Shown: positions 35,334 through 35,755, counted from the first letter of the stretch. The stretch: 64,000 nucleotides of DNA from an uncultured Clostridium sp. (GCA_947367845.1 CANBES010000007.1:242-64241); one strand, 5' to 3'. The notes: generated from the letters alone by a model not told the origin. Numbers and translations are program-made.

Positions 35334-35755
35334 TTACTAGTTAATGGTTTGGAAAGATTGCGGGGAACAATGGGCAAATTTTAGCTTTTATGATTTGATT
35401 GGAATGAGATATAGAATATGTAAGTTTATAAAAAAAGTAATGTTCGCGGGCAAGTAATTATTTTATTTTTTTCATAAATTCTTCGGTTTCTTACATAAGC
35501 CAAGAAATTCTAAAATTATTTTATGGCTCCCTTCCGTGTCAAGCACGAACTCTTTCCATAAAATAATTGGAGAATTTCTAAACTTATTCCAGGCACATTC
35601 ATAATTTATTCAAAAAATAAAATAATTACTTGAGCCTGAGTGAAAGCTCCTTTTTTTATAAACATACAAATTCTTATCAAATGAAATGAACAAAATAAAA
35701 ACTAAAACTTGCCCCCACTGTCCCCCAAAAGCTTTTTCAAACCATTAACCAGTAA
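35334..35755. repeat. giant imperfect palindrome (~420 bp), copy 2 of the family seen at 9156-9682
   Basis: The core at 35418-35672 is roughly 85% identical to 9293-9548, in the same orientation, and the arms pair end to end. Confidence 0.85.

Follow-up and report, generated by a model that had tools for sequence, protein, structure and literature searches.

Organisation of the locus

The DNA analysed here, called the window, is the whole stretch of 64,000 nucleotides from an uncultured Clostridium species. A gene for a 784-amino acid Clp-type double AAA ATPase lies on its minus strand with a start at 35233, and a gene for a CmpB-family membrane protein lies on its plus strand at 35831. The interval between them is occupied by a complete, 424-bp palindromic element, referred to as copy 2. 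A promoter-like sequence, TTGACT-17-TATTAT, is found at 35304–35276, outside the element. Exact-protein look-ups for the Clp ATPase, the CmpB protein and an endonuclease adjoining copy 2 returned no record. The parts of copy 2 are:

35333–35756, plus strand: copy 2, a complete family-2 element of 424 bp
35333–35347, plus strand: left terminal inverted repeat, degenerate, ATTACTAGTTAATGG (family consensus GTTACnnGTTAATGG)
35348–35373, plus strand: left sub-terminal hypervariable segment, rich in G-runs, mismatching the right segment
35418–35672, plus strand: conserved core rod, formed by helices with fixed asymmetric loops between them
35438–35451, plus strand: invariant left internal loop, TAATGTTCGCGGGC
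35525–35557, plus strand: apex, with pyrimidine-rich unpaired flanks CTCCCTTCC and CTCTTTCC and a 4-bp stem between them
35632–35650, plus strand: invariant right internal loop, GAGCCTGAGTGAAAGCTCC, found also in the Sangeribacter copy L004
35713–35741, plus strand: right sub-terminal hypervariable segment, of the L003 type
35742–35756, minus strand: right terminal inverted repeat, CCATTAACCAGTAAC, the exact reverse complement of GTTACTGGTTAATGG

The window holds one relative of this element, copy 1, which belongs to a second (sister) family; searches with the loop motif and by sequence comparison found no further copies in the window. No GTTAC ends, terminal repeats or target duplication were recognisable in copy 1, and REP-like GGGGACGG hairpins make up its outermost arms. 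Its parts are:

9156–9682, plus strand: copy 1, a palindrome of 527 bp that shares the core but has different arms
9293–9548, plus strand: core rod of copy 1, with loops at 9314–9327 and 9509–9527 and the apex at 9400–9432

A preliminary description of this DNA had held that the outer arms of the second palindrome, though diverged, still pair with each other. This is true of copy 1, whose arms are 91–99% complementary (99% between 9199–9268 and 9571–9640), whereas the arms of copy 2 are poorly paired. Comparison of one arm with the other over the whole of copy 2 gave 13 A·C, 4 G·T and 32 other mispairs with 12 gaps, which is more mispairs than in any other copy, and these are concentrated in the outer arms.

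Other repeats were noted in the window. REP-like intergenic hairpins with the motif (T)TTGGGGAC(G/A)G, such as TGCCAAnGGGGACGGACCTTTTTGGCA and GATGTTTTTGGGGACGGAGCAAAAAAACATC, occur at 925–1027, 4056–4156, 6579–6652, 9108–9201, 9637–9682, 10387, 19720, 24002–24150 and 28524–28603. Several lie just past gene ends and are terminator-like, and the hexamer GGGGAC occurs about 15 times against about 3 expected from base composition. Similar REP-like pieces are present in the compared loci L006 (7798–7872), L007 (4332–4404) and L015 (5069–5115), and the motif itself recurs in the sub-terminal arms of the element. Positions 52216–52530 hold about 16 units of a 15-nt tandem repeat, ATGAAGATACAACAR, which would give an acidic D/E-E-D-T-T peptide repeat if coding, and positions 62848–63087 hold a 120-nt unit repeated twice in tandem, the two copies being 80% identical.

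Compensated differences between the two cores

On alignment, the cores of copy 1 (9293–9548) and copy 2 (35418–35672) are 84% identical in the same orientation, in agreement with the roughly 85% estimated by eye in the preliminary description. The two cores differ at 41 columns. Over half of these (22/41) represent 11 pairs changed on both sides, and 10 of the 11 exchange one Watson–Crick pair for another; 13 columns are unpaired, and 6 are one-sided differences located in weak inner helices. The compensated pairs, by alignment column, include:

127/305, 129/303 and 130/302: ATTC/GAAT versus GTAA/TTAC, three pairs
190/239 and 191/238: CT/AG versus TA/TA, two pairs
209–211/218–220: apex CACA/TGTG versus CGTG/CACG, three pairs
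104/332: closing stem T/A versus A/T, one pair
140/292: one further pair, beyond those listed previously

The earlier statement that the differences are compensated on the opposite arm thus survives for every pair that had been listed and for one more, and in the well-formed helices all differences are compensated. Both internal loops, TAATGTTCGCGGGC and GAGCCTGAGTGAAAGCTCC, are identical in the two copies, as had been described, and neither occurs elsewhere in the window. Each core folds to a rod, and the z-scores relative to dinucleotide shuffles are −11 and −12.

Distribution of the element

Public collections were scanned with the 19-base right-loop motif of the core. Among 185,579 species-representative genomes, only three contained copies of the element, in addition to two chance matches in coding sequence, and a few copies were recovered from metagenomes:

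MAG MGBC161913 (uncultured Clostridia, mouse gut): five copies, L001, L002, L003, L006 and L008
MAG CATGLK (uncultured Clostridia): two copies, L005 and L007
Sangeribacter (Bacteroidota) MAG: a half-copy at a contig end, L004
Metagenome copy L015: orthologue of L005
Metagenome copy L016: a further locus, incomplete at one end
Metagenome copy L012: the same as part of L007
Metagenome copy L014: a remnant of the copy 1 locus

The element occupies 8 distinct loci in 3–5 genomes, all of them intergenic and in AT-rich DNA, and its core has no fixed orientation with respect to adjacent genes. The alignment used below comprises 11 copies, namely the two window copies and 9 further ones taken from the two Clostridia MAGs and the metagenomes, and represents 3–5 closely related genomes. 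The Bacteroidota copy enters the comparisons as a right half only: positions 1–235 of L004 contain a diverged right half at the contig start that is 77% identical over 137 nt and has the same right loop as the Clostridia copies and the same terminal TTAACTAGTAAC. The left half of this copy, sought through the neighbouring protein, was not recovered; one of the contigs with that protein begins inside the element, one carries an empty site and one begins just upstream of the gene.

Neither the core nor the Sangeribacter half-copy gave a BLAST match in plasmid and phage collections, and scans of viral contigs with both loop motifs and the terminal repeat gave only chance matches in coding sequence. 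Similarly, an nhmmer profile of the core found no additional diverged copies in the approximately 200 kb of window and loci. The palindromic element family is undescribed in the libraries searched.

Evidence for mobility

Family-2 elements are 423–439 bp long and lack a transposase gene. They are bounded by terminal inverted repeats of 14–15 bp, GTTACnnGTTAATG ... CATTAACnnGTAAC, which were found at both ends of 9 copies. Inside each repeat lies a sub-terminal segment, about 28 bp long and variable from copy to copy, and between these segments lies a conserved core of about 330 bp that is nearly all self-complementary; the element as a whole has no ORF. ORFs that overlap the element region are attributable to chance, being at most 68 amino acids long, and the inner short frames vary between copies. 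L002 (4828–4870; right element end, minus strand) carries a 13-nt tandem duplication, AAACTATTAA-ATT-AAACTATTAAC, within its right terminal repeat, which accounts for its length of 439 bp.

Target duplications of 8 bp flank the copies. The duplication is perfect (8/8) in L001 (CATTCTAT) and L006 (TCTTTTTT), matches at 7/8 positions in L007 and L008 (AAATTTCT/AAATTCCT) and at 6/8 in L002 (AATCATTT/AATCAGTC). The recombinant copies, copy 2 of the window and L003, have flanks without a matching duplication. Furthermore, unoccupied versions of two sites were identified. The metagenome contig L023, found through the neighbouring ribosomal protein S9, has the L001 site empty, with exactly one CATTCTAT. 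In L021, from another sample, positions 240–300 are the unoccupied counterpart of the Sangeribacter site, and the neighbouring protein is 100% identical. That this copy is present in one sample and absent from another points to recent mobility in a second phylum and to horizontal transfer in the mouse gut.

The window itself contains the site orthologous to that of L001 (26939–26966, plus strand). It has no element there and 13 extra bases relative to the empty L023 site; these include TTTAGTAAC, which resembles the right end of the element. The extra bases may be the footprint of an excision or deletion, or a solo end.

From these features it is concluded with high confidence that the element is mobile non-coding DNA. 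It is proposed that movement would depend on a trans-acting transposase cutting the target with an 8-bp stagger. The window and the compared loci (about 200 kb) yielded no autonomous element bounded by these terminal repeats.

Recombinant and decaying copies

BLAST of the loci against the window showed that the two sides of copy 2 have different relatives. On the clpE side, its left arm and flank are orthologous to L005 and L015; on the cmpB side, its flank, right arm and core have their orthologue in L003. The L003 locus of MGBC161913 shares the cmpB-side flank of the window, and its left flank is different and does not contain clpE. Copy 2 is accordingly a chimera, the recombination product of two elements. 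Such an origin explains its poorly paired sub-terminal and outer arms and its non-matching flanks; the dissimilarity of its left sub-terminal segment to the right one, in particular, is ascribed to recombination.

These comparisons also bear on a possible host cis-regulatory role of copy 2 for the clpE/clpC-type gene, as an operator, a leader or an upstream structure. The preliminary description had placed the palindrome immediately upstream of the clpE promoter, and the promoter-like site does adjoin the element, which is upstream of the gene, 100 bp from its start. No sign of a link to clpE regulation was found, however: the promoter-like site lies outside the element, the same element is present at 8 or more unrelated intergenic loci, the core of L005 and L015 is reversed relative to clpE when compared with copy 2, and L003 has the same cmpB-side flank next to a non-clpE left flank. 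A regulatory role of this kind is therefore highly improbable.

Copy 1 has also undergone rearrangement. L017 (2448–2904), from the same species as the window and 99.95% identical to it in the right flank, corresponds to copy 1 without about 100 nt of the apex, the deletion lying between short TTATTTTT-type direct repeats. The left arm and left flank derive from a different copy (93% identical), and the genes upstream are IPT and RND-related where the window has a Lon-like protease. L017 thus represents a within-species rearrangement with a breakpoint inside the element. The remnant L014, at the copy 1 locus, retains only the right half of the core, fused directly to the TetR-side flank. Copies of the element therefore recombine together, giving chimeric copies and rearranged flanks, and decay through deletions typical of palindromes. 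Structural polymorphism of this kind, within and among close relatives, speaks against a host function dependent on an intact hairpin at these loci.

Covariation and the question of an RNA product

The consensus rod of the 11-copy alignment comprises 153 pairs. Paired cells amount to 96.1%, compared with 41–51% when the partner is slid by 1–3 columns. Both sides have changed in 44 pairs, against 9–15 in the slid controls and 18.6 ± 2.6 in shuffles, none of which (0/500) reached the observed value. The statistical covariation test that the preliminary description had called for thus yields pairing far above chance.

Taken at face value, these numbers favour the reading of the core as a structured non-coding RNA (cargo of the element, or else a domesticated gene) with helices under selection and functional loops. 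The fold z-scores of −11 to −12 point the same way, as do the invariance of the loops, the retention of the right-half blocks across phyla between different flanking stems, and two invariant plus-strand G·U pairs in the loop region (columns 119/317 and 121/313). A DNA palindrome, however, predicts all of the covariation equally well, and the covariation therefore does not discriminate between RNA and DNA.

Strand-specific comparisons are more informative on this point, as G·T mispairs would be tolerated in a plus-strand RNA and A·C mispairs only in a minus-strand RNA. Across all copies, arm-versus-arm comparison gave 46 G·T against 54 A·C mispairs, or about 5 against 8 copy-specific events counted by eye, and G·U is thus not in excess. 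The opposite strand folds equally well or better: the minus-strand core RNA is more stable by 2.5–6.4 kcal/mol in 11/11 copies, and the alignment folds give −140 against −144 kcal/mol.

The manner of change in the helices also speaks against an RNA. In core helices 3, 4, 7 and 8, 13 pairs have changed on both sides and none on one side only, so that wobble intermediates are missing. Half of the double changes between the window cores (5/10) are of the transversion type (A-U to U-A, A-U to C-G), which cannot proceed via a wobble intermediate. No promoter-like or terminator-like site is common to the two window copies, the counts of such sites being those expected by chance, and orientation relative to genes is inconsistent. 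Truncation and loss of the apex within species, described above, are further points against it.

Rfam searches of the whole window at the gathering score, and of both copies at E ≤ 10, gave nothing meaningful. The best sub-threshold matches were generic hairpin models of the miRNA type, and TwoAYGGAY reached 29.6 bits against a threshold of 43. A tRNA/tmRNA scan was likewise negative. Considered together, these results make a structured non-coding RNA quite improbable, and an RNA product need not be assumed. These data give no support to the inference of selection on RNA secondary structure in the preliminary description; the element is a mobile DNA palindrome with no strand bias and no Rfam family.

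Four more specific candidates were also rejected. A promoter seen by eye on the minus strand over the left loop, TTGCCC-N17-TATAAA, was not listed by the scanner, and the counts match chance expectation in AT-rich DNA. A small peptide is contradicted by the short frames of the core, whose lengths are unequal in copy 1, copy 2 and L004. A hammerhead-like CUGA...GAAA in the right loop is off consensus and is not reported by Rfam. Finally, the arms were considered as a guide RNA matching the insertion flanks, in the manner of bridge or seek RNAs, and their similarity to the flanks is no greater than that of shuffles.

Maintenance of self-complementarity

Orthologous copies illustrate how changes accumulate. 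Five compensated pairs and three one-sided changes separate L007 from L008, whose flanks are 97% identical. With flanks at 99.89% identity, L005 and L015 would be expected to show only about half a substitution per 424 bp, and nevertheless differ by one fully compensated change from T-A to G-C. The apex stem exists in two forms, CGTG/CACG and CACA/TGTG, whose occurrence tracks the genome and not the locus. In both apex and core variants, L008 resembles its genome-mates L001, L002 and L006, and L007 resembles L005. This association with the genome indicates concerted evolution, with conversion between copies.

The sub-terminal segments of about 28 nt behave differently, being about 30–50% different (by eye) between paralogues with nearly identical cores. 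In each non-recombinant copy, the sub-terminal arms are nearly perfectly complementary to each other. They are rich in G-runs on the inward-reading strand, with an estimated G+C content of 45–50% against 29% for the genome, and share the motif TTTGGGGAC with the REP-like hairpins scattered in the window and the MAG loci. The comparison of L007 with L008 shows that the arms are not mutating extraordinarily fast; the divergence between paralogues is accordingly old, and it is the cores that undergo homogenisation.

It is proposed that complementarity of the arms is kept mainly by template switching at quasi-palindromes during replication, or by mismatch correction or gene conversion between arms once the hairpin is extruded. 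A mutation in a single arm would be either erased or copied onto the opposite arm, and gene conversion between copies would also homogenise the cores within a genome. Arm-to-arm gene conversion, homogenising the palindrome at the DNA level, had been named in the preliminary description as the scenario that could overturn its own reading, and it fits the observed pattern of change. Homogenisation of arms and copies at the DNA level is put forward with moderate confidence, template switching being deduced from substitution patterns that comprise few independent events.

Several blocks do not follow this pattern. The two loops, GGCACATTC, ACAAATTCTTATCA and the pyrimidine-rich flanks of the apex are non-palindromic and invariant in all copies of both families, and the Sangeribacter copy, although its stems are different, retains the right-half ones as well. 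Resistance of these asymmetric blocks to homogenisation requires purifying selection on them, and the earlier proposal of selection on the loop sequence is in this respect borne out. The fixed asymmetric loops would most likely be cis-acting sites for propagation of the element itself.

Invariant loops, together with the G+C content and G-runs of the arms, imply some selection on the element, and this may include selection for a folded single strand, of either DNA or RNA. That the conserved rod and loops constitute a functional folded single-stranded DNA or RNA needed for movement or persistence is a rather unlikely reading. If true, the rod could be, for example, a strand-marking recognition structure or an RNA cofactor encoded by the element. 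The element would then represent a new kind of hairpin-dependent transposon with 8-bp target duplications, spread between Clostridia and Bacteroidota of the mouse gut, and its GC-rich, G-run-bearing, hypervariable, self-complementary arms would be selected clamp or recognition modules.

Relationship to known mobile elements

Bacterial MITEs reach about 400 bp and can form long, stable hairpins; examples are Correia/nemis, Nezha, Chunjie and the 439-bp NFM2-MITE (PMC3184786). They are defined by terminal inverted repeats, a target duplication of constant length, absence of an ORF, dispersed copies and pairs of filled and empty sites (PMC3184786). The element described here is likewise small and ORF-less, with terminal inverted repeats, a fixed-length duplication, intergenic AT-rich insertion sites, filled and empty sites and a long hairpin. 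It differs from MITEs in that it stands in their upper size range and is self-complementary over almost its whole length. Its interior, with the asymmetric loops, is the most conserved part and the sub-terminal parts are the most variable. Moreover, one core occurs on two kinds of arm and in two phyla, and there is no known parent IS. The element is probably best regarded as a selfish, non-autonomous, MITE-like palindromic transposon whose self-complementarity is kept at the DNA level.

The bcr1 repeat of the Bacillus cereus group is about 155 bp long, is flanked by 5-bp direct repeats, is transcribed, and forms two stem-loops with compensatory changes (PMC3184786). Both bcr1 and the present element are mobile Firmicutes repeats with flanking direct repeats in which compensatory changes keep the fold. 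The present element differs in its 424-bp length, 8-bp duplications and single rod.

A target duplication of 8 bp is also generated by the IS6/IS26 family, whose terminal consensus is GGTTCTGTTGCAAA, with a GG start and G7 (PMC6807381). By eye, the element matches 7/14 positions of GGTTCTGTTGCAAA, including C5, T6 and G7. It lacks the hallmark GG start and G10, half of the positions differ, and no transposase of the IS6 type has been tied to it. The resemblance is a weak lead to a partner transposase and does not indicate membership.

Template switching at quasi-palindromes during replication has been described (PMC7202029), and it creates and maintains hairpins with one-step compensatory changes (PMC8794818). 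As in the present element, imperfect inverted repeats are perfected, and apparent compensatory changes arise in one step without selection. Template-switch mutagenesis is a mutational mechanism and not an element, and its action here is inferred.

The integron attC sites and the ends of IS608 combine a conserved structure and variable stems with conserved asymmetric loops that mark the strand. The pattern in the present element is the same, which suggests that it could be mobilised as a folded single-stranded DNA, as are REPINs, IS200/IS605 derivatives and attC. A recombinase would then recognise the hairpin with its extrahelical or asymmetric loops, and selection for the fold would account for the covariation. 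Integron attC sites are bounded by RYYYAAC ... GTTRRRY, are 57–141 bp long, and adjoin gene cassettes and an integrase. The present element has ends of the form GTTAC...GTAAC, opposite in polarity to the AAC...GTT of attC, together with a length of 424 bp and housekeeping neighbours. HUH and tyrosine single-strand mechanisms leave no target duplication, whereas the constant 8-bp duplication and the clean empty site of this element are the signature of staggered double-strand cleavage.

REPINs are REP doublets of about 100 bp that are tied to RAYT (HUH) transposases and make no target duplication, and they commonly show compensatory changes (PMC3116915). In the REPIN model, the unit is a hairpin with conserved ends and a variable middle. 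The present element is similarly a non-coding mobile hairpin with frequent compensatory changes, and its arms share TTTGGGGAC with a REP-like hairpin family of the same genome. Unlike REPINs and the IS200/IS605 family, which insert duplication-free at a fixed short motif, it duplicates 8 bp of variable AT-rich sequence. A nearby gene for a RAYT, TnpA or integrase is not known, the loci compared did not share a repeated gene, and the hypervariable arms are unlike the flanks. On balance, mobilisation as a folded single strand in the manner of these systems appears unlikely, and a MITE-like transposon moved by staggered cleavage is preferred.

Implications

The element provides an example of a trap in comparative sequence analysis: its compensatory substitutions are significant in every covariation statistic, yet they come from a mobile DNA palindrome. 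Compensatory substitutions alone are thus no proof of a structured RNA. For specialists in mobile elements, three features are of note, namely an interior with fixed asymmetric loops that outdoes the ends in conservation, cores under concerted evolution beside highly diverged, self-complementary arms, and the presence of the element in two phyla of mouse-gut bacteria, from which horizontal spread is implied. As the recombinants at copy 2 and L017 illustrate, the element drives rearrangements, and this matters for the assembly and comparison of these uncultured genomes.
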